Assembly (NCBI GenBank): GCA_003971905.1
Contig: RSEE01000084.1
Coordinates: 124,001 to 188,000 of the forward strand
Source: Moniliella sp. 'wahieum'
Taxonomy: Eukaryota
DNA length: 64,000 nucleotides
Direction: 5' to 3'
Shown one piece after another: positions 17,603-57,791 of this stretch. Position numbers and translations under genes: made by a program. The notes under the pieces were generated by a model. That model worked only from the letters and a program-made list of their open reading frames with translations. It searched no databases and was not told where the DNA came from. The stretch's first letter is position 1, and each line of letters opens with the position of its first letter.

Positions 17603-19589
17603 ATGGCCTCCCACCTGGCCGCCAATGTATACCACGAGCGGCAAGAGCCTGGGTCGATGCTGTGCGCTCAGCATGCCATCAACAATCTGGTCCAGCACCC
17701 CGCCATGGATGCCAGCCAGCTTGCTTCCATTGCCCAAGTGCTCGACGCCCACGAGGAGGAGGAGCTGGGCGCTGAGGCTGTGCAGCCGCACGCGCTGCTG
17801 ACCCCCGAACTGCCAACATGGACGACACAGGCTTCTTTTCTGTCGCCGTGATTGAGACTGCGCTTCAGGCGTGGGGGCTGCGTCTCGAGCGCCTCGCAGC
17901 GCCTTCCATGGCCCATGTCCGTACCGAGCCTCAGCTGCAGCTGGCCTTCTTGCTCAACCTCGAGTCCCACTGGTTCACCTACCGCTCCTTTGGATCAGCC
18001 AACCAGTTCTGGTTCAACCTCAACTCCTTCCTCCCCTCCCCCCAGCCCATCGGGCCACTCTACCTCTCGGAACTGCTGCGTGCTTCCGAGGCCGAGCGAT
18101 ATACCGTTTTTGTCGTCATTCCCGACTCGGATGAGGCAGCACATGCCTTCCACCACACTACGGCCGATGAGCTGGCGGATCTATTCCAACCACCGGGACA
18201 GCCAGCTGAATCGGCGGCGCATGCCGGACCATCACAACGATCTACCAACCCCTCGGGCGGTGCTAGTCCCATCGATCTGACTGGGTCGGACCAGGAAGAC
18301 TGGGAACTGCAGGCTGCGCTCCAAGCTAGTTTGGCCGACGCCCAGTTTCCCCATCGTGGTTCCGATGTAGGTACTGGACCGATTCCCGCTGCTGTTGCTA
18401 CTCCTCCAAGTGGTCCTACGGCAGAAAGGCATCCAACCTCCCCTCCTCGGGCCCAACGGCGGCGGGAGAAGGCGCAACCGCCGACGCAGCAGCACTGACC
18501 TCCCCGACTCGGATGGACCGGGTGGAGATGAGGATGCCATGATGCCCAGCTCGATCCGACCGATTTCGATGAACCGGCGTCGGAGCTCAGCACGACAGGT
18601 GCTGAGCTTGTCCTCCTCCGAGGCATCCACCAGCATGGGTGCCGGTACCTCCCTCTCCACTCGTGCGTCTCGAAGGGGCACCGGGATGGATCTGGGGCAG
18701 AGTGTAGAGAGGGAGGAGGATCGATTGGCGGATCTCTTGTCCAGTTCTGCCCGGTCTCCCTTTGCTCACCCGCGGTGCGTAGGACGGTGCAGGGCGGGCA
18801 GAGTGACTCGGACGTAGAGCATGTGGACCTGAGTACCACTGCTCGTTCAGAGGAAAGGTCTGGGGAGCCAACCGGTTCGGCTCCTGTGGGCTCGTCAAGC
18901 AGTGACCAACGTCGTCTCCGTCAACGAAGACGCAATGGACGGGGCGAGAGGGCTCGGGATCTGTTCGAGGAGCAAGATACGGCTCAGCAGATGGGCGGCA
19001 GGGTATGATGACGTTGATTTTGATGACCTCGAGGAGGCGAACGACACGTTTGCGGATATGCAACAGGCCATGTGGGACCGTGTCGCTGCCCAGTTTGCAG
19101 CGGCCGACCGAGCGTATGGAGCGGAAAGTGGGGCGGATCGGTCCCTAGTCCCCGAAACCTCGTTCAGCACCTCCAATGATCGGACATACGATGACGAAGA
19201 TGCCGCTCTCCAAGCCGCTTTGGCCGCTAGTATGGGCGATACAAGTGCTCTGGAGCGTTTGCAGACCGATCCATCTCACGCCGCGCTGGTTAGCCAGCAA
19301 GACGATTTGCCACCAGCCTACGTGCTTCGGAAGCTGGCAGTGGATCCGGCAGTCCAGCCACTGGCTCGGTCTCGGGCCAGGCTCCGCGGATGTGTTGCGC
19401 ATCGCCCAAATGAGGGCAGAAGCAGCAGCTGCAGCTCAGCGCGAGGCAGCTGGGGTGGCCTCTATCCCGGAGCCCAGTTTGCCGGCCAAGGCGGAAGCGG
19501 CAAGCCAGGCGGCCTCGGGTACGGAAGAGGATGAGGAAGACGTTTCTCCTGAAGAAATGCGCCGGCGGCGCCTAGCACGGTTTGGGTGA
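17603..19589 (+). CDS. Ataxin-3 / Machado-Joseph-type deubiquitinase (Josephin domain + UIMs)
   Basis: VYHERQEPGSMLCAQHAINNL (catalytic Cys), MDDTGFFSV, HWFT (His), WFNLNS (Asn). UIM-like EDWELQAALQASL and DEDAALQAALAASM. C-terminal SPEEMRRRRLARFG*. Several 1-bp frameshifts. Confidence 0.92.
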
Positions 19590-19995: not shown

Positions 19996-22900
19996 CTACG
20001 CCGGGCCTTGACCTCCAGCTCTGGTTCCGAGGGGGAAGATGGCGGTCAGCAGGAGCAGGCTCTTCCGGTGAAGAACGATCGAGCGGGGCAGCATCCAGCC
20101 AGCAGCAGCGGGTGAGTTGGGCGCAATCGGGGCCACCACTCCCGCCTCCGGACCTTCCAGGGGCGAACTTGCGCGTGCCCCAGGCGAAGAGGACATCTCT
20201 GCAGCCCTAGCGAGGGGTAAAGGTACTGGTGAAGACGGACCTTGGGCAAGGGCAGATGAAGCTGGGGGCGAAGAGCCTGGGTCCGAAGGAATCAAACTCT
20301 GTTCCGATCGAGTCGAAGATTTGCCCTTGCTCTTTTGGTCCAAATCTTGTTGTTGTCGCTCAGTGAGGACTTGCTTGAGCCACATGCGTCTGTATTCCCC
20401 GTCTTCCATAGCCAGCAGTTCCTCATGCGAGCCTTGCTCGACCTTGCGGCCATCCTTAATGAAGAAGATCACGTTCGAGTTGATCGTTGTTGACAGACGG
20501 TGGGCAATAGAAAGAGAAGTGCGGCCCTGCAGTAGGTGTGCAGTGCATATTGCAGTTGCTTCTCCGTCGCAGAGTCGAGCGAACTGGATGCTTCATCCAG
20601 CATAAGAAGGGGCGCATTCCGTAAGAAAGCACGAGCCAACGCGACTCGTTGAATCTCGCCTCCGGACAATCGAAACCCCGCTCCCCAACGACTGTATCAA
20701 GCCCAGGGGGAAACGCGCGATTCGATCCCAGATCTGCGCGTGCCGAGCAGCTGCGATCACCTCCTCGACCGAAGCCCCTGGCCGGCCGTAGGAAATGTTC
20801 TGCAGGATGGTCGCGTTGAACAGAGACGGGTCTTGTTGCACCACGCCCCAGGCTTGACGGAGCGAGCGAAGAGTGACGTTGCGGATGTCCTGACCATCAA
20901 TCAAGATTTGGCCACGTTGAGGGTGATAGAAACGTAGAAGCAAACGCATGATTGTCGACTTTCCCGAACCCGATGGCCCCGCAAGCCCGCAAGCAGAGTG
21001 GGCGGGAAGGGTGAAGTTGAGCCCTTCCAAGGCATAGATTTGTTCAACGTGACTCTCGTCAGACCCAGGGGGGCGTGGATAGGTGAAGTACACATCACGA
21101 AATTCAATCACCCCGTCTGTCACAACCAGATCCTTGGCCCCCGGTACGTCCCCCACGTCCGAGTTCAGCGCCAACAGATCCAACAGCTTTTCCGAATCGG
21201 TCATGTTTTGCTGCGCCGCCGTATAGTAGGCCATGGAGGAGGTAATTGGTGTATAGAGTTGAACGAGGTACGCCGTGAACTGGACAAACTGGGCTGGGGT
21301 CGCTTTACCTTGCACAACGTGGGCGACAATGAGGTAGGTAATCAACATGCCAGAGCAGAGAATGCACTGCTGGACCCAGTTGAGGAGGCCGAGGGACAAG
21401 GTCACGATCCGCTGTGATTGGAGGTAGCGGGACAATGCTGAGCCATATCGACGCGATTCATACGGTTCGTTGGCAAAGGTGGCTACCGTGTGCCAGCAGA
21501 GAAGTGCGTCGGTGTGGATTGAACGAGCTTTGCTGTCGAGGCTGTTCATCTCGCGTCGTAGGCCAGCGCGCCAGGACGACATGTTGACACTGACAATAAT
21601 GTTGCACGCCGTGACAAGAAGCAAAACAGCACTGACGCCAATAGAGTAAACGTGAGCGCACCACGCCACCGCGACCCCGATATCTAGGATGATCGGGACA
21701 CCATCGTACATCAGTCTTCGGAAGAGATCATCAATAGCCGATCCACGGTCAAGCACGCGGAGCAGTTCGCCCGTGTTGCGGTGCGCATGAAAGCTCATGG
21801 GGAGCTGCATAATGTGATCAAACGCAAGGATACCGAGTTGATAGGAGGTGTGAACCCCAAGACTAAACCAGGGGATCCGCTGGACAAACAGCATGGTCGA
21901 CTGGGTCAGGCGCAATGCCACATAGGTGGTGATAGCAGTCCATGGGATTGATGTCGCCCCACTCAGTTCTCCCACAATATGGCCAAGAGCAAGGGGAGTG
22001 TAGAAGTTGATTACTCGGTTGAAGAGAAGCATGAGGATCGAGAGACCGACATAGAGTTGCAACCGCAGCTCCTTGGGCCACAGATACGGAAATAGTTTCC
22101 AGAGCCGTTTGAAAAATACGTGTGAGGAAGGTGGGCTTAGAGGAAAGTTGAGGGGGAGGTGCAGCGTCGGCCTTGTTGTCTGGACTTGGGACGAAGAACC
22201 AGCCGCCCCGTACCCTGGATTAAAGCCTGGGGGGGTAAAAGGACATCGCCCTCGGTGGGCTCCTCAATGTCTGCGTTGGCAGCGGCTTCAGCTGCAGGCA
22301 CAAAGTCGACTCTGTCACGCGACAAGAAAAGCAATACAATAGGGTAGACAAGCAGGAAGCGGATGGCAAGCAGGACCAATTGGGGGACAGCCCACTCCAA
22401 CGTGTCTTCGGGGTCCTTTGGGTCGCTGGGGGATGCACGAGCGGAGAGAAGGGCAATGAAGAGGATCGCGTCAGTTACCATGCCCACCAATGCCCCAACG
22501 ACGACTTTGCCGCGCCCATAGTCCCCTTGGCAGTGACGAGTACGCTCCTCGAAAAGAATGGCCAGTGCCGTGGTGACTGAGGCCAAGGCGCCCCCCATGC
22601 TTGGAGGTCGAGAGCATGCCACAGAGGCAGGTCCGGCTGCCAGACCCGCGTGTTGCCAAAGGGGAAAAATGGCACGGAGCACCACAAGGGCGCCTGATAT
22701 GACATAGCTTGTGGCCACAACGAGAAGGGCGACCAGCGTCCAGACTCGGCGGCGGCTGCGAACGAGGACAATGACCGGGATCGGGCCTGGGGCGGCGTCG
22801 AGACCAGTGCCGGCGGGGGGGGGAGCAGCGCCGGAGGAGGATGCCAGGGCGGATTGGGAAGCTCTCCGGGAGACAGAAGCTGCGATCTGGGCATGAGACT

Positions 22901-33300: not shown

Positions 33301-35163
33301 GCTGATCCACCAGCAGTCGTTGACGCGCCCAGGAAGCGTGCTCGATCGGCTCTTGCTGTGGAGCTGGCAGTCGAACTTGATGCTGTGGACCTGGCTCCTG
33401 TCCCAGGGGGGCTGCTTGCGCAGGTCACTCTTGGCCTTGCCCATTTTGCTGCCGGGATGTTGCATGGTCCGGTGGCCACCGGCGGAGCCTACGCGACCCA
33501 GGCCCTGCATGCAGTTGCCGTGGTGCAGGACACACTAGCGCTCACAGCACAGGGCGTGGCCTTTCGCGTACAAGAGGAGCGTAGCGCCGATGGCGAGCTG
33601 CTTGAACCCCTGTCGTTTCAAGAGGCATGCCAGCGACCAGACTGGCCCGTCTGGCATGCTGCCATGGTTAAGGAGGTGAACAAGATGCGGGAACTCGCGG
33701 TTTTTGAGCTCGTGGATCGGCCTGCCAATGTTCCTGTTCTCCGGTGCCAGTGGGTGTTTAAAGCGAAGCTGGATGACACTCGTCAGGTTACCAAGCACAA
33801 AGCCCGTCTCGTTGCCGATGGACGGACCCAGGTTCAAGGAGTGAACTTTGACGAGGTTTTTGCTCCCGTTGTCAGGAGTGAGACCATCCGGGTCTTGCTC
33901 TCCTTGGCGTGTCGTTTTGGCCTGCATGTCCATCAAATGGATGTGGAGGCGGCATACTTACATGCGGCAGTTGACACTGAGGTTTACATGGCCATCCCGC
34001 CTGGCTTCAGGGGTCCTGACACGGAGGGCAAGTGCTGGAAGTTGCTCAAGGGTGTTTACGGCCTACGCCAGGGGGGCAAGCTTTTCCACGACCATCTGGA
34101 TGGGGTGTTCTTACGTCTCGGCTACCACCGGTTGCAAGGGGAACCGTGTGTATATCTTCGCGGCCAGGGCAGTGCTTTGGTTCTGGTGGCCTGCTTTGTG
34201 GATGATACTGTTTGGGCCTGTGCCGACTTGACGCGCTTGCAAGAGGCCAAGCGCCAATTTGCCAAGCAATTGCCCGTGACTGATGGCGGCCCTGTCAGCT
34301 ACTTGTTAGGGGTGAAGGTGGAGTATGATCAAGCAGCCCGTACCTGCTTCCTCAGCCAGCGGGGATACGTGGAGGGTGTGCTTGCGCATTATGGGGAAAA
34401 GCTAACCTCACCTCCCAGCCCTCGACCTGCTCGCCCGGCGCATCTACTACCTTTCTCGGGCCAGGCCAGTGATGCGGATCGTCGTCAGTATGCGGGGCTT
34501 ATTGGTCACCTTGGCTTCGCTGCCCTTAACACCCGCCCTGACATTGCTCAAGCTGTGGGCGTGTGTGGTCGCTTCATGGCTAACCCGGGACCAGATCACT
34601 TCAATGCCGCGTTTCAGGTCCTACGCTTTCTTCGTCGCTCACCGGGAAAAGGTCTCCATTTCTCCTTTCACGCTGATGCGCCGTTGCTAAATGGGTTTAG
34701 CGATGCCGACTGGGCGGGGTGCCCGGCGAACCGGCGTTCGACCTCTGGGTATGTTTTCTTTGTGGCTGGCAATTTGGTTTCTTGGTCGTCGCGGCAGCAA
34801 CTCATGGTCACACTCTCGAGCACCGAAGCGGAATATGTTGCCCTGGCTCATGCGGCCAAGGAAGCAGTGTGGCTCAGGCTGTTGCTCCGGGAAATCTTAC
34901 CACATGAGGAGGTGGTGCCCACCATCTTCACTGACTCTCTCGGCGCCCGCAAGCTGGCCGAGGGCCACATCATTCACAAGCGCTCGAAGCACATCGATTT
35001 GCGGCACCACTTTCTGAGGGAACTCATTGCCGCCAACGTGCTCCTCTTGGCGCAAGTGGCGGGGGTGCACAATCCGGCTGACATGTTCACCAAGACGATC
35101 TCGGGCCGCGCAGTCGACGCTAGGGCGGAGCAACTTGGTCTGCGTGGTGGCGGTGGCAGCTAA
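30392..35163 (+). CDS. Copia gag-pol polyprotein; frameshifted in the assembly, with RT/RNase H intact in ORF 33139-35163
   Basis: CCHC knuckle at about 31219-31260, DSGAS at about 31637, integrase at about 32150-33030, RT-RNase H in the 674-aa ORF. Start approximate. Confidence 0.9.
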
Positions 35164-36445: not shown

Positions 36446-39235
36446 TTAGTGCCGGGCTTGGGTAACGTCGTGTCCCGACGACCAGACCAAATCCAGTTCC
36501 TCGCGCAACGTTTGTTCGCGGAAGCGGAGGCGAATGGACGGGATGTTGGATTTGGACACCACGTTCCCACGTGGGCCTGGGAGGTAAAACTTGTTGCCCA
36601 ACCAATGCCGTTTGATCTCCATCTCCCAGCCCGATTGCAGCACCGAGTTGCGCGCCAACTCGCACATGTCCGACGCACGCAGTTTGTAAATCTGCGTTGC
36701 GACGCTGTACTCTTCCAGCAACGGCTCTTTGGATAGATGGAACTGCAATGGGTCGTCCGTCGACAGGGACACGTTCATCCCCAGCTTGAGGAAAGTGGGG
36801 AACGGGTTACGTTCGTACGAGAGGAACAGCGCATTGTTCGACAGCGGCGACATGGCCAACCCAATTTGCTTGAGGTAGTAGAGGTACTGTAGCGTCGGTA
36901 CCTTGCGCAGCTGGATGCCATGCGAAATCGATTGTGAGGTCAGGAAGGTCGCGGCCAAGTGGTCCGGGTCGCCCGCCTCCCCAGCATGGGGGCGCAGTAC
37001 AAACGTATCTGCTCGCCGTCAGTACTTGACACGGTCGACGCAAAAAAGGGGAACGCAAAACGTACTATACCCGCATGTGCCGCCACTGGTTGAGGGTGGA
37101 GATGTTGGCGTACATAAAGTAGGCCCAGTAGGAGTATGGCGGAGAGGACAGTCCGTCCCACTCCGACGGACGGGGGAACTTGTTATGGACCCTGCGCTCC
37201 GGCTTGGACTCATCATCAACCAAATCAAACCCGACCACACGTTGGAGGAAGACATGCAACTTGGGGTAAGCAGAGGGGTCATGTGTCGCCTCAAAGAGCG
37301 GCCCAAAGACATCTGTAGAAATCCCAGTCAGGTTTCGTAAACGTTCCCAAGAATGCAGATGGGCACGTACTGTCGATCACATCATCAAAGTTGTCCACCG
37401 TCCCGTTGGCCTTGTAGACATCGTACAAGCGTGGAACTTGGATTAGCCAACGCACATTTGGGGAAAATAGATCATTGTCCACAACCCAGGCAGCAAGTTT
37501 GTTCCATTCCTCCTTGTTGCGGCCATAAATGGAGAGGCGGTATTGTCATCTGATACTTGGAGGCCTCGAGATCCGCCATTAGCTCCTTGGTGATCTCCGC
37601 AGGTAGCGGCCATGAATCAAGTTGTCGGTTTGAGAAAAATCTCACGAAGACGCGACTCACCGAGCGGGTTGTACTTGAGGTTGAATTTGTCAAAGCGGTG
37701 GAAAGCGTCCTGGTGGGCATGCATGTCCAGCGTGTCAATCGAAAGATCGTACGCCGTCAGACCAAGCGACTCGAACACTTGTTCCAAAGTGAGTTTGTGA
37801 CCATCACGGAAGATGACCACATCGTCCGGATGACGCTTGATCTTGGCTTTGATGAACCGGAGTAGGTGCTTCTGGTTCATCGAGGCTGAGTGGTGAATAT
37901 GCGTGTCGACCTTGCGCACATTGTAGAAGTCACGGTGGGGAACTTTCTTCATCCCATCCAACTCGCGATACTCGTTCAAGAGAGTGTACAAGTTCCACTT
38001 GGCTTCGAGGTACTTGAGCCTGCGCCAAGCAAAGGAGCGGGTTGGACCATCCGCAACAATGTTTAAGAGAAAATCCAGATCCTTGTAGTATTGCCGCATG
38101 GTGATCGCTGCAAAAAGTGGTTTGGCCTCCTTGCCGACCGACTCGGGGGCCTGTTCATCAAACACCTGGAATACCCCGTCCACCCTTCGGAATGTAATCG
38201 GCCTTCCTTGGCGGGTGTGCTTGGTAGGGAAGCGCATGAACTTCATGTCGAACTTACCAGGTACGCTACCAGTGGCAGTGAGCAGCTGGCTCGCAGCATT
38301 GGCGTTGGCCGGGGAAGCGGGCGCGATGGCGGGAGGAAGGGGATTGACCGCTGTGGGACGAACACAAAGGAGGAGCTGGAGCAGGGTGGAAGTTTTCCCA
38401 GTGAGGTCGGGGTGGGGCGGGATAGATTCTCCACGGTTTGAGAGCGGGCTTGTCCCCGGAGCCGTCGGACCAATAATCATCGTCGGGCGAATAGGCAAGA
38501 GAACACCCATCAACATATACTTCCTTCTCCTTCTTGTAGTCCTGGTTGGCCTTGCCCGCCCCTGGCTGAGCATTGAATTGCTCCACATATTCAGCGTCCC
38601 AATTCTTTGGATTCTCCTCCCAGTGAGCCTGATGAGAAGCCAGCATATACTTGTCCCGAAGCTCGAGGCACTGTTGTAAGCTGGTGTAGAGCTCCGCCAG
38701 TTCCGACGAAATAGGGGCAGGGACGGACGAGTGGCCTTCGGCCGCGCCTGTGCCTAAGCTGGCTAGTCGAGCAGCCGCATCCGCAGGAGACGCCGCAAAC
38801 TCTCCTTTCCCATCTTTAGAGGAACTGACAGAAGGTTCATAATTGTCTTCTTCTTCGTCCTTCTCACCCCCGACAAGGGAATACGACGAGCGACTCATGC
38901 CCCAATGTTCGTCTGCCACCTCGTGTCGTAGTTATTCTCGGCGAGTTCTTCTTCCAACAGGTGGCGGGTGGGGGCGCTTCGATGGCCAAACAAGTGAGGG
39001 GCCGGAACAGGGCCTTCGACACTCTCTCCAAGTCTCGGTTTCTCTCCTGAGGGGACAGGTGAGAGAGCATCATGGCTGCATGAGAATGGGCGCTTGCGGC
39101 GGAGCTGGACAGCTCGGGGAAACTGTCCTCGGGTGGGGATGCAGCTCCTGGCATGGTCCACGGGGCCGATGGCGTTTCTCGCGTGGGGGTCACGTCGCCT
39201 GGCGTTGCATCGCCCGAAAGGACAGCAGCGTACAT
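36446..39235 (-). CDS. AMD1: AMP deaminase
   Basis: [117 protein letters not shown]. Two short introns near 37010-37067 and 37313-37371; frameshifts present. Confidence 0.96.
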
Positions 39236-42200: not shown

Positions 42201-42303
42201 ATAACCACAAAGGAGCGCCCCCTCCGCTTCCTCCTCTAAACGCACTCGACACATTGGTTGCTTCCCTGTTGCTGCCCCGCCATACCACCTGTGCCTCATA
42301 TTA

Positions 42304-45250
42304 TGGCATCCATCGCCCCCGCCGAAGAGGGTGAGCTGTTGTCGCAGCTTCTCAGCTCCGACGAGATCCAGTCTCTTCTCGCGGCTACAGACTATGCTGA
42401 CGACGCTCTTCCGTTTGATTCCACCAACTGCGACCCATTTTCTATTCATCAGCCGGCTGTGCTGCCCCCGACCCGACCCAGCCGGACAAACTCCTTCGAT
42501 CCCACATCCTGTTACCTTTTCCACTCGAACCACTCGATCCAGCACCCACAATGCCAATGCCAGCATGCTTTTCCCCGTACTTCACCCCACCGATAATCTT
42601 GTACCTAGCGCTGCCAATCCCATGGCACACTAGCCAGTTCGTCTGCTCCATTTGCCGCCTCCCCTGTTCGCGTCTCCGGCTCTCCCTCCCCCCAGAGAGC
42701 AGATACCACGCCCAAATTTTTGCCCACCACATGTCCCATCTCAACTCGCACGACGGGCGCAACCAGAAGAAAGATAGGGTGGGCGCCTTGCTCGGTGATT
42801 GTGCTCCGATGAGCGTGCCAACCATCAGCTGGACATTGCCCTCCTCGTCCTCGTCCTCCTCCAACCGGGATCCTAGCCTCGACGACATGCTGCCTCTCCT
42901 TACAAGCGATGCTGCTCCCAAGATGACACTGCAAGAACGACGGAGGATGGCACGTCTGCGCGAGGCACGCGGCAATCTCCGGCATTCTCTCCAAACCCGC
43001 ACCAACACTCAAGTAACGACCAGCAGGAGGCTCGGCCGCGGGGCATTCCCCACCCACTGTCCAGTTCGTTCGGATCTACCAATCCGTCCATTGCACCTCT
43101 CAAGTACCCACCCCCTTCACCTGGATGGCAGAGCGAGCGCCCGTTCCGCCCGACGAAGATGAACCTCCGATTCGATGGACGAACTTGGACTTGCACAGTA
43201 CCTGGACCTCCTTCCGGCGGCCGTACCTCAGCCGCGCTTCCATTCCAGTCCAGCACCACCAACGTCTGGTCTCTTACTGACGGAGCAAGTTCGGCACACA
43301 GTACCTTGATCCCCACTCCGTCGGATTACGTCTCCATTCGCCTGCCCCACTTAACGGGGGTTGACCAGGAAAGGTATACCGACCGAGGCATACTCGTTGC
43401 TCGTGGTATAGGCACTCTGTCGGGGACTGGGAATGGAAAGGGGGCGGAGATCGAGACGGATACAGATCCGAAGACGGGACGAGAATGAGAATGGAGGCAG
43501 GGCCCAAGCAGGAAGCTGGAATTGCAAATGGGACTGAGGGTGGAGGCTGGATCGGTGCATTCGATCCGTTGAACGCACTGTTAGAGGTCGCCTCTCGCCG
43601 CCATCCAGTGATCGACTTGGGTCCCGTCCGTTTCAGCGGCGTTTACGGTGGCGGACGTGACGCTGCCAGACCATCCAATTGTGTATTGCAGCGACTCCTT
43701 CCTCCACTTGACGGGCTACGAGCGTCACGAAGTGATCGGGAAGAACGCGCGGTTCCTCCAGGCACCCAGTGGGCTGATGAGCAAAGGCGAGGTTCGCACC
43801 ACCACCGACCCTGCTGCTGTCGTCCATCCTCCCACCACCTGATGAAGCTGGAGGAGTGCCAGGCAAGTTTGATCAACTACCGTAAAGGCGGTGCTCCGTT
43901 TCTCAATTTGGTCACGCTCGTACCCATCCCATGGGAGGGGGTACCGGGGTCAAATACGTGGTAGGCTTCCAAGTCCCTCTTTGGCTCAAGGGGAAAATGG
44001 CATACTAGAGAGCAAGGAAGCCAGTACTCTCTCGCATCCGTCTCCCCTCGCACCCTTGCTTGAGAGGCGGCCTCTCCTCTCCAAACGGAGCCCAATCGGT
44101 GGCGAGCGTTGTGCGGCCAACGGAAGTAAACCCGTTTGAATGGGCAAGTCAACTGGTGGACCCATGGGCGGTGATCAACGGTCGTTCGGTGGTGCAGATG
44201 CTGTATCCAGAAGAAGAGGCGCCCCCCTCGGTCAAGCAGGAACATTGGTCTCGCGTGGTGGTGGAGAACACGCCAGACGTTCTTTTTTGTCCTTTCAATC
44301 AAGGCGTTTCTCCTCTCCCCACGCATCGAGCGTCAGACGGGATGGAGCCACGTGGAACTGAGCGGCAAGTCGATTGGAAATTATATGCACCCCGCCGATG
44401 TGGTTCCGGTCTTTCGCCAGCTAAAGGACGCTATTCTTCGAACGTGACCTCCAAGGAAGTCCATTTGCTATTCCGAATGAAAGTAAACGGAGAGTCGGAC
44501 TTAAGTGGATCGAGTCTGTCGGCCGAGTTCACATGGAGACGGGCAAAATGAAAGTCGTTATTCTCTCCGGTCGACCACGGGAGATTGAGCATGTACCACC
44601 TCAGGCATGAGTCGGGTTACTTCCTCCTCCGAGCCAGGGTTCTGGATGCGCCTGTCCAAACAAACCGGCCTCCTCTTGGCTGTAACTGCTCCGGTGATAC
44701 ATTTTCTGAGACTGAGTCCTGGTCAATTGATGGGCAAGTCGGTCAAGGACCTGGTTCCCGGCCCCAGGGCTGAGGCCCTCCTCGCCGCCCTTCAACATGG
44801 AGAGCAGTCGGTGGTTCAGCACGGCCTGCTCGATCGACTGGGGCGGAAAGTGACCGTACTGTCGCAAGTATACCCCTCTGTGGGCGCAACGAGCGTCTGG
44901 GTTCACATTCGTGGTTCCCACCCCGACTCGGTCGTAAGCGAGGACAGTGTGTATAATACAGCGCGCCCTTTCACTTCCTACAGGACGGAGCTGCCTTCGA
45001 ATGTGCTGCCAGAGTTTGATCCCATTGCTCTTCCAGCTGGCCATATGAACTCCAACGGCTCCGTTTGCTGAACAAGAAGCTGCGGCAAGAGGTGCAGACG
45101 ACGTATTCGCGACGGCTCAAGACCTTACCGATTTGGGCTGAGAACCAGAAGAAAGCCTCTTCCTGCCCCTCTGGAAGAGGAGGATCTGCAAGAGCTGTTG
45201 ATGACCCTTCCTGTTGCCACTTCGCTCGCCGAGGAGGAGGAGCCGATAAT
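42304..45250 (+). CDS. WC-1: White Collar-1-like LOV/PAS protein, basidiomycete type with no GATA zinc finger seen
   Basis: IDLGPV...[40 protein letters not shown] (LOV), [29 protein letters not shown] (VVENTPDV...[15 protein letters not shown]...VHLLFRM), PAS-C-like region and C-terminal [21 protein letters not shown]. Ends approximate. Confidence 0.88.
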
Positions 45251-46450
45251 CAAGCGAGGGCGAAACGGCCTTCACGCAGGCATGGGACGAAGAGAGGGAT
45301 GCAAACAAGATGGATGGCTTTTCAATGCTCGCCAGCGTCAGTTCCGATCCACTTCCGTGTGACTCTTCTTCCACCCACACCCGCACCACCTTTGATCCTC
45401 TCCTCCCCTCCCGCGCTCCCAGTAGTTTTTCAACGGTATACACATCTCTCACAGATTGCCAAATCCCGATCAAAACTGCCCCTCCACTTACCCCTCCCCT
45501 CCCCTCTTCAGGCCTTGATTTGTTTGGCTCAGTACAAGGACACCGTCTCTCTCCTGACATCACAGGAACTTTTCCCCTCTCCCCTCTTTTTCTCCTTATT
45601 CTCCTTATACATCCTCTGCGTCTCTTTGCACTTGCGGCGACAACAGGTACCCCTCTCTTCCACAATCCGCTTCCTTGACTCAGCAGGGTATTGGTTGTAT
45701 GGAGAGGAGTCTCCTCCGTCTGTACCCCCTACATACTAGCCTGTGCTCTCTTCTCTGTCTTTTCTGTTTGCGTGCCTTTTGCCTTTGTCCACCTACCGTT
45801 AATACCATCAGTCTGCAATTCGCGTTTTTTTCCAGCGGGAAGCCTCCTCACCGGGACCTGTGCTAGAGAGGCATCTCGTTGCATTCCACGACATTGTCAC
45901 AGGGCGAGCAGCAGCTGGGGTAGGCAGCAGTGTCATATGCCAACATGTCAAGGGAAATGCTTCCTGTGACTCCTGCGCTAGTTCCCCTCTGACACAGTTA
46001 CTATTAGTACGGTCAACGTAACTGGCACAAGGGCGAAAAGGTTACAACTGGCAGGCGGTCGGTGACCCAATCGTGAGTATTTTGGCTTGTGAGGCTCACA
46101 TGTGAGAGTATGAGAGTGTGAGGCCGGCAGTGGGTTACGCGGTTGCGCCGGCTACGCTTCTGTATAGAAAAGCGCGACTCTGCAGATGCGCCACCGCCGC
46201 CAGACGGATCGTGTGATGAGCGTTGGAAGCGTCGCGGGAACGCGTGAACGTTCAAGTTATCAAGTTCAAGTTCAAGTTCAACACTTTGCGGTAGGCTCAG
46301 CGCGCGCCCAGCGCTGCTCAGCGCCCGACGCGGATCAATTCACACTCCGCTCAGAAGCTTTTTCAACAGCCTGGCCGCCTCACCGCCACCTGCTGCCAGC
46401 CGGAGCGCGGTGGACTTGGACCAACGCCTGCCCGCCGTCTGCCCCCCCAC

Positions 46451-49100
46451 ATGCCCTCCTCCGCCTCGACCACGTCAGTGGACCAGCCCCCCAGCCCCGC
46501 CTCCGGAGGCTCCCCCTCCAGCCGCTCCGATCGCCCGCGCAGCAGCCTCACCAGCACCGGCACCAGTGCCGGTACCTTCCTCTTCGACCCGGGCACAGAG
46601 AGTACTGGCCACCGCACCGGCAATCGCACTGCCTCCTCTGGCCTCCATCTCTTATCCCACCACGTCGGATGACGAACCGTTCACCTTCGCCTATGCCGCT
46701 CGTGTCTCCCGCTCCTCTCTCCTGTCGGATAGGGTCCAGGGCGCAGAACGCTCCCCCTCCCCGCCGCAGCCAAAAAGCCAGCCCTCGTCTTCTGCCCGTC
46801 GGCCTCCCGAGCCTGCTGAACCTGCCGATGCTGACAAGCCTGATTGCGCCCCTCTGGTCGTACGCCTTTGCATGTCCGGGACCCACACGGGTCGCCACAG
46901 CCCATGGCCTGGGGGCCTATTTTTGGGCGGTCATCACTGATCCAACCACGGGAGAACCCTTCTTTGCCAACCCCACACGGGCGAGTGCCGCTGGGAAGTG
47001 CCGAGTGGCACGCTTGTCCTGCCCCCACCGCCGGACGGTGCCTGGCTTGAATTCTTTGACCCCCATCGCGGCCGGCCGTACTACCACAACTCCGAGTCGA
47101 GCGTGACGCAGTGGGACCGGCCCAGGGGCCTGGTCATCCCAATGACCGCTATTCAGGAAGTTGCCCACCTGCCTGACCATCTGGCGGTGGACTCGCATAC
47201 GTCGTTGCTGGTCCCCAGGTCGGACAGTGTGCGGCCGCCTTCGACGCTCTCTTCTCCCAACCTTCCTCTTTCCTGCCTCGGCCGAGCGGGTTGCCCACCC
47301 GACCCCGCTCGCACCGGTCCACCTCCCCTCCGGGCCCTCCACAAGGGCGCCGAACTAAGAACCGGCCTCGAGCGTCCGCGCCCCCGCTTACTCACCCCGC
47401 CTCGCATTCGGGAGCTCCGAGCGCCTCCATCGAACCCATCAGCTTTGCTGCTCAGATCACCAGTGCGATGCTCCGCGCACCCAGCAAAGGTACCTCGCCT
47501 GTCCCGGCGCGGTCCTCACCTTCTCTTTCCACGACCCCTACTCCCTGGGCGGTCTATGCAGCTCAAACGTTTTCAGAACAGCGGTCTGGTCTCTTCCGCT
47601 TGCGTCGTAAGATCCCGCTGGACCAGCTTAGAGCGTGGCAGCGCGAGCCCATCGTTGCCCCGCTGTTGGAGTCCACACCCCGACACCAAGTTCGCGAGGC
47701 GAACACCATGTTTAAGATTATTCTGCGCGTCTGCGGGGACCGAACCGCAGGCGTGCTCGGCGCCCAGGCTAGCCTCCTCGATGAGCTCTGTTGGTTGGTG
47801 GAGACCAGCCTTGCCAACAAAGGGTTGAGAGACGAAGTGGTACGCCCTCTGCCCCTCGCGTTGCTATGTTTAAGGGCCCTTCTAACTTTGCTGGGTAGTT
47901 TGTCCAACTCATCAAGCAGCTCACTCATAATCCTTCCACCGATTCTGCCTTCCGGGCGTGGCAGATGCTCAATGTGTTGCTGATCACCGGTTTCCCGCCG
48001 TCTGCCGCGTTACAGCGTCCGATGGCAGTGTGGATTGAGGGACAGGTGAGCAGCCTCCCCCCCCGCTCCGAAGGAACAGCAATGCGGACCGTAATAAGTG
48101 CCTGTGAAGCGCGCCTGGCCGCCGCCGCCTACCATGGTCCCCGAGCCCACGCCCCCAGTATGGACGCAATTGTCGCTGCCTTGGAAAGCCCCTTTAACCC
48201 TTGTGTCTTTGGGCTCAGCCTTGAGGCAGCCATGAAGACCCAAGCGCAAGTCTACCCGAAGGCGCAGGTCCCTGTTGTGCTCTCCTTCTGTGCTGACGCT
48301 ATGCTTGCTCTCGATGCCCCGCACACCAAGGGCATGTGGGCCTGGCCCCCGCCCCAAGAGCAAGTGGAAGAGTTGCGGTGCCGCATCGATCGGGGGACGT
48401 ACGCCTTGGCTGGCTTGCCATCTGACCCGCGCCTACCGGGAGCCGTGCTGCTTGCCTATCTAGCTGAGCTGACACCCGCCTTGCTTCCGCCGGAAGTGAC
48501 GGAGCAAGACACCTCTTCCCCCCGTAGCTTGAACCGCGTCGTGGCATCCTTGCCGACCTTGTCACGAAGAGTTTTGCTCTTTCTCATCAGCTTCCTTCAA
48601 CTCTTCACACTTCCGGACGCAGTCCGTTTGTCTGGTGTCTCACCCGCCCAGTTGGCCCGTACTTTTGCCCCGGCTCTGTTTGGCCCGACCGTCCCTGCGT
48701 CCCAGGAGGCGCAGATAACGTTCCTACAACAGGCACTGGCCCAGCTCGACTGTACATTGGATAAGGAGTATGTGCCTGTGCATGGGCGTGGACCCCAGGA
48801 GCCTTCCCTCCCCGACGCAGCGGCGCCCGTGCACGTCTTCCATCCGGTACGGGGACTGGGCCCAGGGCAACCAACCCGCCTGGCCCCCACGCTCGAAGTC
48901 GAATCGGCTACGTCGGAGGGCGAGAGCAGCGTCGCGGGCTATCAGGCTGGTGGTGCGGCCCATGCCTCCTATCCTCTTTCTTCGTCCAACCTGCGCAGCT
49001 TGATTTCCAAGCTCACGCACAGGAACAGTACGAGCTCCAAACCCTCGCCCAGAGCCAGCGGACCTCTCGCCTGGTCCTGGATGGCTTTGTGCATGGCCTG
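46451..49100 (+). CDS. WW + MyTH4 + RhoGAP-like protein (ARHGAP39/Vilse architecture)
   Basis: Two WW-like modules (FWAVITDPTTGEPFFANP...CRW; WLEFFDPHRGRPYYHN...TQWDRP), MyTH4 (RAWQREPI...LRDEV / CQLIKQLTHNP; intron at about 47840-47898) and a RhoGAP-like domain (VFGLSLE...VPVVLSFCA...LPTLSRRVLLFLISFLQLF...LARTFAPALF). Confidence 0.82.
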
Positions 49101-49617
49101 CCCACCCTGGCCAGCACCTCCCTTGAAGTTGAGGACGGAAGCAGCAGGCGAGTACGGCGTGAGAGTGTTGGCTAGGTGTCAACTGTTTGGCTGGGTTCGT
49201 GGGGCCCTCTGTAGCGTGCACCATCTTGGACTGATCCTGCACATGTGACCATCAGGGGGACATACCTGACTCGCGCGTGACCTTGTGCGGTGGTGACCCT
49301 TTTTGCATTTGCCTTTTCCCTACCTCGATCATGATCCCATTTCCCCCTTCAAAATCCCTCTGCTTTTCTGTCGTGTTTTGGCGGGCCTTGCTCCGGCCTG
49401 GGCCCCCTCATTTGGTACCTTTCTTTTTTTCTTTGGCCACCTTACCCTTGGCCCCAATGGATTCGAGTTGTTACCCTCTCTCTTTCTCCCCTCTCTCCCC
49501 CGTACTTCTACTTGGACTACCACTCCGTCCTGGTGTATCTCCGCCCCGCCATGGACCACTCCAAAAATGCATATCACTGCCCTTAAGGGCGGGACGACTG
49601 GACGATCTGGTCCGATG

Positions 49618-50920: not shown

Positions 50921-53314
50921 ATGTCGTGGGTCCTCAGCTCCCTCGCTGGCTTCGTCCAGCGCCGGCGACGCGCCCTTTTCTTCACCACCAGTGTGGTGGG
51001 CGGCGTGTATGTGGTGGGCAAGTACGCGCTGGACCGGGTGCGCGATGCCCAGCAGCGTCTCGTCGCCGAGCGGCGCGACAAGGAGAACCTGCGCCGCCGT
51101 TTTGCCCAGAACCAGGACGACTGCACCTTTACTGCCTTGGCCCTGCTCCCCGCCCTGGCCGCCCAGATGTTGCGTCGCTCAACGTCGAGGCCATCACCTC
51201 GGCCTTGCAGCGCAAAAAGACTCGTCCCCCCGTCTCGGCCCCACAAAATGGCACCCTGCCCGCCGGCCAACAGCCTCCTCCTCCTCCCTCGCCGATCGCA
51301 AGGAGCCCCCCCCGGTGCTGTGACGGAGGAAGCGGCCACCCCTGCCGTGCCGCTTGCGGCACAGACTCCTGCCTCCGTCTCAGACGATGTCAAAGCCAAG
51401 GTAGATGACAGCACGGCCAAGGAGACGCCTGCACCGGCTGAGTCTGTTTCTGAAGAAAAAACGCCTTCCCCGGACAAGACGGTCCTGGATCCTCTTCCCG
51501 TAAAAGCTGCCGCAAAAGAACTCGTGGACGATGAAACGACAGCAGAGCCTGCTCTTCAGGAATCTGACCCTACCGCGCTATCCGCTGACCATTCCCCGGC
51601 CAACGAAACCGAGACGCATGTAACGAAGGATCCTGCTACTGAGGACGCGGAGGAGCGTAGTAAGGGAGGTCCGGTTCCGAAGGATCCCGTTTCCGATGAT
51701 GCTGAAACGAAGGAGTCGCTTGCCGAGGAGTCGGATCGGAAGGAGCCTACTACCGAGGATCAGGAAACGAAGCCGTTGGCTGCCGAAGATCTTGGTACCA
51801 AGGCATCGGATACCTCGGGCCCTGAAACGAAGAGGCCTGATGCACAAGAACCTTTGTTTACGGAGGTACCCACCGGTCCGGAAGCTTCTAGCGCCTCAGA
51901 GCCGACGTCCACCCTTCCCAATCATGAGGGCGGGGGACGCCCGTGGAAAGGGCCAACGGCCATACTGATTCTGAGGAGAAGACTTCCACCGAGCATGAAA
52001 AGACTCCAGAAGACACATCAAATGCCCCCGATCAAGGGGCCAGCGAAGTGCCGGTTGAATCTGACCCAGGGCTGGATGAAGAGGAGAAGGCGCGCGCTGA
52101 AGCTGCTGCCCGAGCAGAAGCTGAGGCGGAGCGGGAAGCAGCCGAAGCAGCCAAGCTTAAAGAACGACAAGAAACCCTCGCTCTTTGGAACGAATTGAAG
52201 GTGGTCTCGCTCAGTCAGGCGGTGACGAGGTGTATGGGATTGTGCTGCTGACGCTTCAGACCCATATCATGCTCAACTTGATTGGACGATACTCTTACCT
52301 CGCCTCGGTTGTGGCCATGGGCGAGAACCCCCCGCAGGATGCGGACGATATGGAGGACGAAGCGTTGCAAGCGGCGTTTGGAACAGCAGAGCGTCAGATG
52401 GCTCCTTCCGAGGAAGCATCGGTCGGCATTAACCCACACACGGAACGGATTTATCTTACTTTTTCCTGGTGGCTTCTCCATCGTGGTTGGCATCGCATGG
52501 CGGACCGGGTACGCACCGCGGTGGAAAGCACGTTTGGCCAACTCTCCATCATGAACCTCATGTCGTGGCATGAGTTTGACCGCATGCTCCGTTCGGTGCG
52601 AAGGAAAGTGGAGTACGATGTTCTGCCCCCGCTGGAGCAAGAGGCATATGCCTCTGGCCTATCCGCATGGGGGGAAGATTTGCACTCCTCCGCTCTGTCC
52701 GAGGTTTCAGGTACCACGCGCGCTCCCGCCGGCTCCTGGCCAAGAGGAGAACGTACGTTGTCTTCTGAGATGCGGGCGAGCAGTACACTAACCACTGGGG
52801 TGGGATGTAGGTTTCTCGATGTGCTCTTCCCAACCACTGTAGCGGAAGAGACGGAGGTGGTGACTGAGGTGCGGGTTACCCTTCTGCTGAAGCGGAGCGG
52901 GTGCTTCTCGCAGACCCGGCGTTGCACGCGCTGCTCAACGAGAGCAAGGATCTCGTAGAATCTCCCGACTTCCGATTGGTCCAGCGCTTGGCTCTTGACG
53001 CTGCCTTCACTGTCTTGCGCAACGGGACCCGGGGCACGTTCGGTCTTCCTCCGCTGACGGAGGAAGGGATGGAGCCGCCGCTCCCGCTCGACTCGAATCG
53101 CCGCTTCCATGAACTTACCCCCGAGGAAGAGAGCATGTTCTTCACCACGGGCGCAGGCAAGCGCGTCAAGCTCGCCAACCTTTTCCCCGTTGTGGCCAAG
53201 CTGAGCAAGCTTGCATTTCAGGGCACCCCCAACGAGTATGTGGAAGCCGTGACGGGGGTGAAAGAGCTGCGGGCGTTCAGCGCGGTCATCTACTCTTCCT
53301 GGCCCAAGGCCTAG
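50921..53314 (+). CDS. PEX3: Peroxin-3
   Basis: N-terminal basic patch plus TM, KENLRRRFAQNQDDCTFT, LWNELK, HIMLNLIGRYSYL, YLTFSWWLLHRGW, ESKDLVESPDF, NEYV...ELRAFSAVIYSSW. A long acidic low-complexity insert sits in the middle. Confidence 0.93.
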
Positions 53315-53373: not shown

Positions 53374-54919
53374 TTATCGATGATTCCCAGTAAAGTACTT
53401 GTTGATTGAAGCAATGGAGTCGACGTGAGTTGAAACGTCGAGCCGTTGAATTAGAAAAAGAGCAAGAGAAAAACAGAAACAGCTACTCTTCCCATTGGTG
53501 GCATAGATCTCCCTTCCCAACTCATGAACGCACTTGAGAAAGTACCGCAAGTCTTCTGGGTCCACACCGGGGGTGATCCCGTGCCCAAGATTAGCAATGT
53601 AAGCGCCCGAACCACCAAAGCCTCCGCGTTTGGCCCGCAGCATCTTGTCCACTTGGTCCCGGATCGCGTGTTTGCCCGCAAAGAGAACACTGGGATCCAA
53701 GTTGCCCTGGAGGGCAATCCGGTGACCACTGGTCGCTCTATCGAGAGCACATTCTCCTTACCGATGCCCGAGGGCACGCCGGCTGCTTGCTCCGAGACTG
53801 GCGTCCCACTTCCCGATGGTTTGTCCGATAAACGGGGGGAACCACCACGGTGCAAGACGCTGCGCGTTGCGCCTGCTACGGCCGACGCCGCCGTCCGACC
53901 CCGCGCGGCCGGTCCCAGCGTCGTGAGGTCCACAATGTTTCGTGCCACGCCCGGCTGCACCGTCCAATCGAGACTGAGCACGTCAAAGCCCGACTTGGCC
54001 ATTTCGGGCAACGAGTGGTTCCCGGCGCCCTTGGTGTAGAGGATCATGGGGATGGCCCGGCGCGACTCGAGCGAAAGCGCATCTTTCACCCCGGCCGCAA
54101 TGGCGCGGAGATAGGGGAGGCTAAACGTGCGGAAATCCGAGGGAGTCAGTGTACCGGCCCAAGAATCAAACACTTGCAGCACCTGCGCGCCCGCGCGCAC
54201 TTGTTCCACCAAAAAGTTGATGCAGACATCGGTGATTCGTTCCAGCAGCGCTTTGCTTTCTTCGGGGTGAGCCCAGATCCAGCGCTTGGCCAGGTCAAAT
54301 TCTTTCGCTCCACCGCCCTCGATCATGTACGTCATCAAGGTCCAGGGCGCGCCACACAACCCGATCAGCGGCACGCGGCCCTCGAGCTTTTTGCGCACCA
54401 AGGTGATCGTCTCCAGCACGTAGCCCAGTTCCTTGCGCACATCCACTTTTTTCCGCAGCCGCTCCATGTCGGCCGGAACCAGGAGCGGCTCGGGGAACAG
54501 AGGGCCTTTTCCCGGTACCATCTCCAATTCCATCCCCATTGCCTGAGGCACGACGAGAATGTCGGAAAAGATGATGGCGGCATCGAGCAGGTCGTGGTAC
54601 CGCCGCAAGGGCTGCAGCGTAATCTCGGCCGCCAACGAGGGGGTGCGGCAGCACTCGAAGAAATCATGGCGTTCCCGCAGCTCGCGAAACTCGGGCAGGT
54701 AGCGTCCGCCTGCCGCATCACCCACACAGGCGGCCGCTCTGTCCGCTCTCCACGGGCAGCACGGATGAGGAGATCGTTTTTGAGCTTGGGAAAGTCGGTC
54801 GGCCCGTCGTCGACCGAGAGCGGAGGCGGTTTCTCCTTTTTGGTGGTGAACGCGTTGAGCTGTTTGCGGAGCGCAGCCGACGTGGCGCCAATGGCGCCCT
54901 GCTTTTCCTTGGGCGGCAT
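53374..54919 (-). CDS. HEM12: Uroporphyrinogen decarboxylase
   Basis: FPKLKNDLLIRAARGE..PPVWVMRQAGRYLPEF, DAAIIFSDILVVP, GAPWTLMTYMIEGGG, QVFDSWAG, LDWT, LQGNLDP, YIANLGHGI. Exact stop uncertain because of indels. Confidence 0.96.
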
Positions 54920-56817: not shown

Positions 56818-57791
56818 ATGAGCAGCTCGCCCTCCTTCACCACCATCCCCACCTCCCCCACCTCCCCCGAGGAGAGGCAGCCCCAAGTGCTCCCCGTCCT
56901 GTCCGCCGTCGAGGCTGCCAAGCGTGCCGCTGCCTATGCCGCTGTCGATGCCCAAATCCTGCCCCATCACCGCGCCATTGGCATCGGCAGTGGCTCTACC
57001 CGTGCCCTACGTCGTGGAGCGCATTCTCCAGCAGGGCCCCAGCGTCAACCGCCGCCGTATTTTTATTCCGACCGGCTTCCAGTCCAAGCGTCTCATCCTT
57101 GCTGCCGGTCTCTCCCTCTCCGACCCAGACGCTGTCACCCGCCTCGACGTGGACATTGACGGCGCAGACGAGTGCGACCACCAGCTGAATTGCATCAAGG
57201 GCGGCGGAGCGTGTCAGTTGCGAGAAAAAGTGCTGGCGGAAATGGCAGATACGTTTGTGGTCGTTGCGACAGCCGCAAGAACGCCGAGGTGCTCGGCACC
57301 AATTGGGTTCGCGGCGTACCAATCGAGGTGGTTCCGTTTGCCCTGAGCTTGGTCATGACCCAACTCGTCGCAGCAGGTTCTATTGAACCTACCCTGCGCA
57401 TGGCCAAGATGAAGGCTGGCCCTGTCGTGTCGGACAACGGGTACGTCCCTCCCCGCCGCTGCACCCGCGCCCCAACCTGTCTCTTACTCGTTTTTTTTTT
57501 TTTTTTCTGTTGATCGACTAACTTATTTACCAGCAACCTGATCATCGACGCCCCCTTCCCGCGGGAACGGATGGCCGAACCTGGCGCGCTGCTTCACCAA
57601 CTCAAAGCCATGACGGGTGTGGTGGAGTGGGGCTGTTTGTGGGTCATGCAAGGCAGCTACTTTGGCAGCGAAGACGGGACAGTGACCATCAAGTTGGCCA
57701 ATGGGACAGTCCATCGGGCATTCAAGTCAAGGTCGGCCAATTGCCCGACTTTCCAGATGCGCAGGCCTACGCTCCGCTTGCTCCTCTGTAG
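56818..57791 (+). CDS. RKI1: Ribose-5-phosphate isomerase A
   Basis: EAAKRAAA, IGIGSGST, IPTGFQS, DGADE..LNCIKGGGAC..REKV, VPIEVVP, KAGPVVSDNG|N. Intron at 57441-57533 (GTACGT...CTAAC...CAG). 3' end approximate. Confidence 0.95.

Follow-up and report, generated by a model that had tools for sequence, protein, structure and literature searches.

The photochemistry of LOV domains is defined by the adduct formed between a cysteine and the flavin. To our knowledge, adduct-free signalling has been demonstrated mainly in engineered proteins and in one archaeal domain that is poorly photoreduced. The present study concerns a White Collar-1 (WC-1) gene on a stretch of 64,000 nucleotides from Moniliella sp. 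'wahieum' (NCBI GenBank assembly GCA_003971905.1, contig RSEE01000084.1, positions 124,001 to 188,000 of the forward strand), in the LOV domain of which the codon at the site of the adduct-forming Cys specifies Ala. This whole stretch is referred to as the window, and coordinates are given within it. Read as it is from a poor assembly, the locus is a lead; a natural Cys-less photoreceptor is not thereby established.

The closest described systems are Wco1 of Ustilago maydis and Bwc1 of Cryptococcus neoformans, with which the window gene shares the order LOV-PAS-PAS. No GATA finger was found in the window gene among the 63 open reading frames (ORFs) of the plus strand at E values up to 0.1, a search that a finger split by frame breaks could escape. 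Among the relatives used here, the finger (PF00320) is absent in the basidiomycetes and present in the Mucoromycota, and the accessible portion of Brych et al. (2015; PMC4831468) describes the zinc-finger-less WC-1 as the basidiomycete type. The same portion gives GKNCRFLQ as the motif of U. maydis Wco1, and the motif of the window gene likewise begins with G-K-N. Unlike Wco1 and Bwc1, the window gene has Ala for the adduct Cys, nine frame breaks as assembled, and a longer terminal branch. U. maydis carries, in addition, the WC-1-like gene um02052, which belongs to the same subphylum and from which adduct formation is not expected either. As described in that portion of the paper, um02052 is devoid of the whole GKNCRFLQ motif, whereas the window gene has lost only the Cys and groups with canonical WC-1 proteins (PMC4831468).

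Cys-less LOV proteins have been treated most directly by Yee et al. (2015; PMC4682037). In the parts of that work available to us, VVD C108A and YF1 C62A are reported to signal through the flavin neutral semiquinone, and some 70 natural Cys-less LOV-like entries are noted, in which Ala, His, or Pro takes the place of the Cys. The window gene resembles this group, called LOV*, and the two engineered proteins in keeping all signature residues except the Cys, and its Ala is among the natural replacements. The architectures given in Supplementary Data 1 of Yee et al. show no LOV-PAS-PAS arrangement of the White Collar type; one 'PAS_9-PAS_3' and 18 'PAS_9' entries appear there as identifiers only, without organisms (PMC4682037). 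No report of a natural Cys-less WC-1 was found in the literature searched, the coverage of which excludes most subscription journals.

A White Collar-1 orthologue with alanine at the adduct site

The gene and its domains are arranged in the window as follows.

42303..45400, plus strand: White Collar-1 (Wco1/Bwc1-type) gene, placed by similarity to the relative P0011, with the start ATG at 42303 and an approximate 3' end
43560..44010, plus strand: LOV domain of the flavin adenine dinucleotide (FAD) type with the WC-1/VVD loop, spread over three reading frames (PAS_9 matches in two frames, frameshift-aware alignment to P0011, alignment with 20 relatives)
43747..43749, plus strand: Ala codon GCG at the adduct Cys site (Cys in 20/20 aligned WC-1 relatives)
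43840..43845, plus strand: TGA TGA in the frame of NARFLQ, the result of the frame break at 43828-43829
44286..44604, plus strand: PAS-B domain, in three frames (PAS_3, E 1.1e-4; alignment to relatives)
44607..44960, plus strand: PAS-C domain, in a single frame (PAS, E 4.3e-4; 38% identity to P0011 over 143 residues)

The window gene is a genuine White Collar-1 orthologue, as the first-pass annotation had proposed from the LOV motif. PAS_9, PAS_3/PAS, and PAS matches follow each other in this order along 43612-45068, giving a LOV domain and then two PAS domains. The closest relative, P0011, is a protein of 2037 residues with the motif GRNCRFLQ and 70% identity over the N-terminal half of the LOV domain. 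Its tblastn matches cover 42917-45115 piecewise and collinearly, and the peptide that follows the ATG at 42303 is similar to its N-terminus; the 3' end of the gene can be placed only approximately because the C-terminal region is of low complexity and uncertain frame. An exhaustive profile-free search with the N-terminal half of the LOV domain returned 6350 proteins at E <= 0.001. The full-length matches in a single stretch were fungal WC-1 proteins, and those with a name include proteins of Mycena, Marasmiellus, Heliocybe, Ganoderma, Tulasnella, Tilletia horrida, and Ceraceosorus. A maximum-likelihood tree with 20 rows gave the window gene and P0011 as sisters (100/100) inside a clade of seven rows (100/100) that also holds the WC-1 proteins of Tilletia horrida and Ceraceosorus. 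The other six members of this clade all have the Cys. The terminal branch of the window gene (1.03) is longer than that of its sister (0.54).

The AMP deaminase encoded next to WC-1 was most similar (66-71%) to orthologues of Tilletiaria, Thecaphora, Ustilago, and Ceraceosorus. Together with the WC-1 tree, this places the organism in or near Ustilaginomycotina, without a close sequenced relative in the collections searched. A word-indexed protein search with the PAS-C piece, aimed at longer proteins, gave 2283 candidates and none at E <= 0.001. A metagenome scan with the N-terminal half of the LOV domain gave 28 loci, the best being 62% identical over part of the query, and a close copy of the locus was not found among them; none of the 28 entered the other comparisons.

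Two proteins labelled as from the fern Adiantum nelumboides were met in these comparisons. One (P0196) is a fungal-looking AMP deaminase and the best match to that of the window, at 71%; the other (P0144) is WC-1-like and groups with Ustilaginomycotina fungi in the tree. It seems that the A. nelumboides assembly is contaminated by a fungus akin to the organism of the window.

On the plus strand, 43738-43761 reads ggg aag aac GCG cgg ttc ctc cag and encodes G-K-N-A-R-F-L-Q, exactly as had first been reported. The adduct-forming Cys of the consensus G-x-N-C-R-F-L-Q, a mark of photoactive LOV domains, is thereby replaced. GCG matches neither TGC nor TGT at any of the three codon positions, so the earlier statement that no single base error connects them is correct: with the frame kept, the change takes either three substitutions or a deletion together with a nearby insertion. 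The aligned position is Cys in all 20 WC-1 relatives, and all Cys residues that the LOV domain of the window gene does contain are also present in the relatives, so that no Cys relocated to the vicinity of the flavin was detected in the alignment. When the 76-codon stretch around the motif was compared with a structure database, the best matches were LOV2 chains of phototropin (E ~2e-13), and the top two solved structures were engineered Cys-to-Ala forms of LOV2 that likewise read NARFLQ.

The same report had called the codons in frame and had given the range of the LOV domain as 43640-43930. This was confirmed for the 76-codon open stretch at 43612-43839, which corresponds to positions 7-44 of Pfam PAS_9 (E 4.6e-8), and does not hold beyond it, where TGA TGA follows as a consequence of the frame break just upstream. 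PAS_9 positions 58-88 are found in a different frame, in the ORF at 43365-43961, and the G-F-Q strand lies in a third. The picture of an intact in-frame coding sequence had therefore to be given up, there being, as assembled, four frame breaks inside the LOV domain and nine over the three PAS domains. Once the frames are followed, the remainder of the LOV motif is conserved as had been claimed, with G, N, R, F, L, Q, two Asn, and Gln all in place. The two Asn residues, at 43875-43877 and 43905-43907, are taken by us to lie on the G-beta and H-beta strands, and the Gln, at 43970-43972, on I-beta. These are the nine non-Cys signature residues listed in the available methods text of Yee et al., who assign to LOV* those Cys-less domains that keep at least nine of ten other conserved residues (PMC4682037).

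Conservation across the rest of the domain was assessed on the corrected frames. The window gene keeps 32 of the 37 LOV columns that are invariant in the 20 relatives; the five misses are the Cys itself, two residues at frame breaks, one that lies beyond the translated piece, and a linker Gly replaced by Ala. In a leave-one-out comparison it retained 91% of the conserved LOV columns (relatives, 87-100%) and 84% of those of PAS-B and PAS-C (relatives, 86-100%). No stop codon was found inside the frame-corrected LOV, PAS-B, and PAS-C segments, which amount to about 1.45 kb.

Frame breaks in WC-1 and in the surrounding genes

The frame breaks were located by aligning P0011 to the window in segments, using a frameshift- and intron-aware protein-to-DNA aligner of our own. 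All nine fall within 1556 nt (43560-45115), at a spacing of 40-420 nt, and eight are net deletions.

43629, plus strand: frame break 1, net -2, separating L-G-P-V from the S-A-A-F-T-V-A-D strand, at an Asp invariant in the relatives (alignments)
43828..43829, plus strand: frame break 2, net -1, where the sequence is rich in C (P0011 alignment)
43935..43936, plus strand: frame break 3, net -1, next to G5 and G4 runs (P0011 alignment)
43976..43980, plus strand: frame break 4, net -1, directly after G-F-Q-V, at an Asp invariant in the relatives (alignments)
44285..44288, plus strand: frame break 5, net +1, within a run of T6 where PAS-B begins (P0011 alignment)
44433..44458, plus strand: frame break 6, 26 nt between PAS-B segments in different frames, net change not resolved (alignments)
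44483..44484, plus strand: frame break 7, net -1 (P0011 alignment)
44605..44606, plus strand: frame break 8, net -1, between PAS-B and PAS-C (P0011 alignment)
45024..45025, plus strand: frame break 9, net -1, ahead of the conserved S-S-W-x-Y-E-L motif (P0011 alignment)

Introns were ruled out as the cause of these nine changes of frame, because the matched protein segments abut within 0-26 nt, whereas the introns of the neighbouring AMP deaminase gene, as aligned with its orthologue P0198, are three ordinary GT..AG introns of 54-59 nt. One more frame change, in the linker at 44058-44210, is either a break or an intron.

Similar breaks are present in the genes around WC-1. For these neighbours, Pfam profile coordinates were mapped onto all ORFs, and the junctions were then inspected for breaks without intron-sized gaps. 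Six genes, with about 7.8 kb of conserved coding sequence, contained ten frame breaks, all of them net deletions.

54689..54707, minus strand: uroporphyrinogen decarboxylase, one G lost from a G run in the M-R-Q-A-G-R-Y motif (Pfam mapping, junction)
57265..57280, plus strand: ribose-5-phosphate isomerase, loss of one base (Pfam mapping, junction)
37543..38370, minus strand: AMP deaminase exons, four frame breaks at 38370, 37631, 37602, and 37543 (P0198 orthologue alignment)
52227..52230, plus strand: Pex3, frame break near 52228 (Pfam mapping, junction)
17776..17800, plus strand: Josephin gene, frame break near 17790 (Pfam mapping, junction)
20672..20722, minus strand: ABC transporter, two breaks within 60 nt near 20700 (Pfam mapping, junction)

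Several of these breaks sit in invariant motifs of essential enzymes. As such enzymes cannot all be pseudogenes, bases must have been lost in the assembly, which is deletion-prone. The errors can be clustered, as is seen from the three breaks within 90 nt of the AMP deaminase gene and the two within 60 nt of the ABC transporter gene. No frame break was seen by Pfam mapping in the Iml2 gene. Three further events in the AMP deaminase gene, located beside introns, were rejected as artefacts of the aligner, which does not model split codons.

Among the columns invariant in 120 AMP deaminase orthologues for which the window has a residue, 80 of 82 were kept and both misses lie at frame breaks, so that no substitution-type discrepancy was present at the 80 assessable positions. 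At the threshold of 97% conservation or more, 120 of 125 columns were kept; the misses are the two at breaks and three conservative replacements, which may be real.

These figures bear on whether the Ala codon could itself be an error that hides a normal Cys, either through miscalls or through the loss of a T and the gain of a G. The local quality is poor, with a frame break every 40-420 nt, and a deletion and an insertion at a distance of three bases would turn AAC TGC CGG into the observed bases. Against this stands the direction of the errors: 18 of the 19 indel events inferred in the window are net deletions, and the sole net insertion lies in a T6 run. An insertion outside a homopolymer that exactly compensates an adjacent deletion at the functional codon would be a very improbable coincidence, and miscalls accord poorly with the absence of substitutions from the invariant AMP deaminase columns. 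An assembly in which deletions dominate is unlikely to have produced an in-frame change from TGC to GCG. An artefact is accordingly considered very improbable, and the Ala codon is taken, with high confidence, as a real feature of the DNA.

Some further features of the window were noted. The gene downstream of WC-1 (46941-49245, plus strand) encodes WW, MyTH4, and RhoGAP domains. Its MyTH4 match opens with profile position 19 on the very first residue of the ORF, and an ORF in another frame overlaps it upstream, which suggests one more frame break near 47900. In Pex3 (51175-51979, plus strand), about 800 nt of Ser-rich, low-complexity sequence lie between positions 76 and 92 of the Pfam profile; insertions of this length are unusual in the family. 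A 687-codon open frame at 33100-35160 (plus strand) encodes a Copia-type reverse transcriptase (RVT_2, E 1e-57). Upstream of it, the ORFs at 32250-32654 and 32658-33107 (at least 135 codons) gave no Pfam match and hence none to an integrase; the element may be truncated or broken.

Possible selection, decay, and signalling without an adduct

Tentatively, we favour the reading in which the frame breaks of WC-1 are mostly or all assembly errors, the Ala is real, and the gene encodes a flavin-binding, adduct-incapable LOV domain that is held under purifying selection and signals through a flavin semiquinone. The locus would then be the WC-1 orthologue in a smut-lineage fungus (Ustilaginomycotina), viewed through a draft assembly that loses one or two bases every few hundred, and most or all breaks of the locus would be like those found in the housekeeping genes nearby. 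Starting from TGY, the shortest path to GCG leads by way of Gly or Ser to GCC and ends with a silent change, so that at least two of its steps alter the amino acid, and every codon between TGY and GCG would have been incapable of adduct formation. That a single codon was hit three times, with the remaining flavin contacts unchanged, argues that the LOV domain was functional for a long time without its Cys, so the lineage has probably long kept such a domain under purifying selection.

Several observations weigh against this reading and speak instead for a decaying gene, in which blue-light sensing by WC-1 was lost, the Cys disappeared, and some of the nine breaks are real lesions of what is now a pseudogene, added to a background of assembly error. 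The breaks are about fourfold denser in WC-1 (9 in 1.56 kb, ~5.8 per kb) than in the six neighbouring genes (~1.3 per kb), an excess that fits real decay too. The terminal branch of the window gene is about twice that of its sister, and its share of conserved positions is at the bottom of the family range or slightly under it. PAS-B is short of two residues at one place and of one at another relative to all relatives, and such small in-frame losses, like the loss of the key catalytic residue, would be expected of a decaying gene. Other features are hard to reconcile with it. Neutral decay over the extra branch length would, by our estimate, have produced well over ten stop codons, and the lack of any in the frame-corrected segments argues that the gene was under selection for most of that time. 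All nine other signature residues of the LOV domain are kept, and the breaks, net -1 or -2 next to short runs, do not differ in kind from those of genes whose function is indispensable. A codon altered at all three bases, moreover, cannot be the product of a short neutral period in which the rest of the domain was spared. The WC-1 gene may nonetheless have died recently, after long selection. Decay is regarded as a possible, though rather unlikely, explanation.

A gene that is intact and expressed could also be blind to light, its Cys-less product acting as a scaffold or as a partner of WC-2 in dark functions; a canonical WC-1 might then exist as a second copy elsewhere in the genome. In Neurospora, WC-1 deprived of its LOV domain reportedly retains dark functions. 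A precedent for two genes exists in U. maydis, in which, according to the accessible part of the paper, um02052 without a LOV motif occurs beside the functional Wco1 (PMC4831468). The window gene, however, sits inside the clade of canonical, Cys-bearing WC-1 proteins and not on a separate paralogue branch, in a tree that does not include um02052. A purely structural PAS domain is, furthermore, not expected to retain all nine flavin-contact residues, and um02052 has by that description lost the motif (PMC4831468). The retention of the flavin contacts thus points to a flavin-dependent role rather than a purely structural one, and a light-blind partner is judged unlikely.

If the favoured reading of a selected, adduct-incapable LOV domain is followed to its mechanism, the protein would still bind FAD, as its conserved contacts suggest, and pair with WC-2, the partner with a PAS domain and a GATA finger in the White Collar complex. 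Among the window ORFs scanned, none gave a GATA match. Light or redox state would probably be sensed by photoreduction of the flavin to the neutral semiquinone. This form would protonate N5, as the Cys adduct does, and Cys-less VVD and YF1 provide the precedent. A caution comes from the natural Cys-less BAT domain, which was photoreduced poorly according to the part of Yee et al. available to us (PMC4682037). The strongest version of the proposal, in which the gene is the sole and functional WC-1 of the species and signals by the neutral semiquinone without a flavin-cysteinyl adduct, is at present doubtful.

Implications for White Collar signalling

Since essential genes around the locus share its frame breaks, conclusions drawn from single codons of this assembly are unsafe until it has been polished. 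Findings from this genome that rest on a frame, a stop, or a single codon therefore require checking against the reads.

If the window gene proves to be the only WC-1 of this fungus and functional, it would be the first White Collar protein known as a blue-light transcription-factor photoreceptor that signals by the semiquinone without an adduct, and nature would have provided a test of adduct-independent LOV signalling. A WC-1 orthologue that lost the Cys long ago and retained all its flavin contacts would also offer a natural eukaryotic system in which semiquinone signalling, and the coupling of light to the cellular redox state, could be studied in vivo, and it would bear on the fate of light-regulated UV protection and development in such a fungus.

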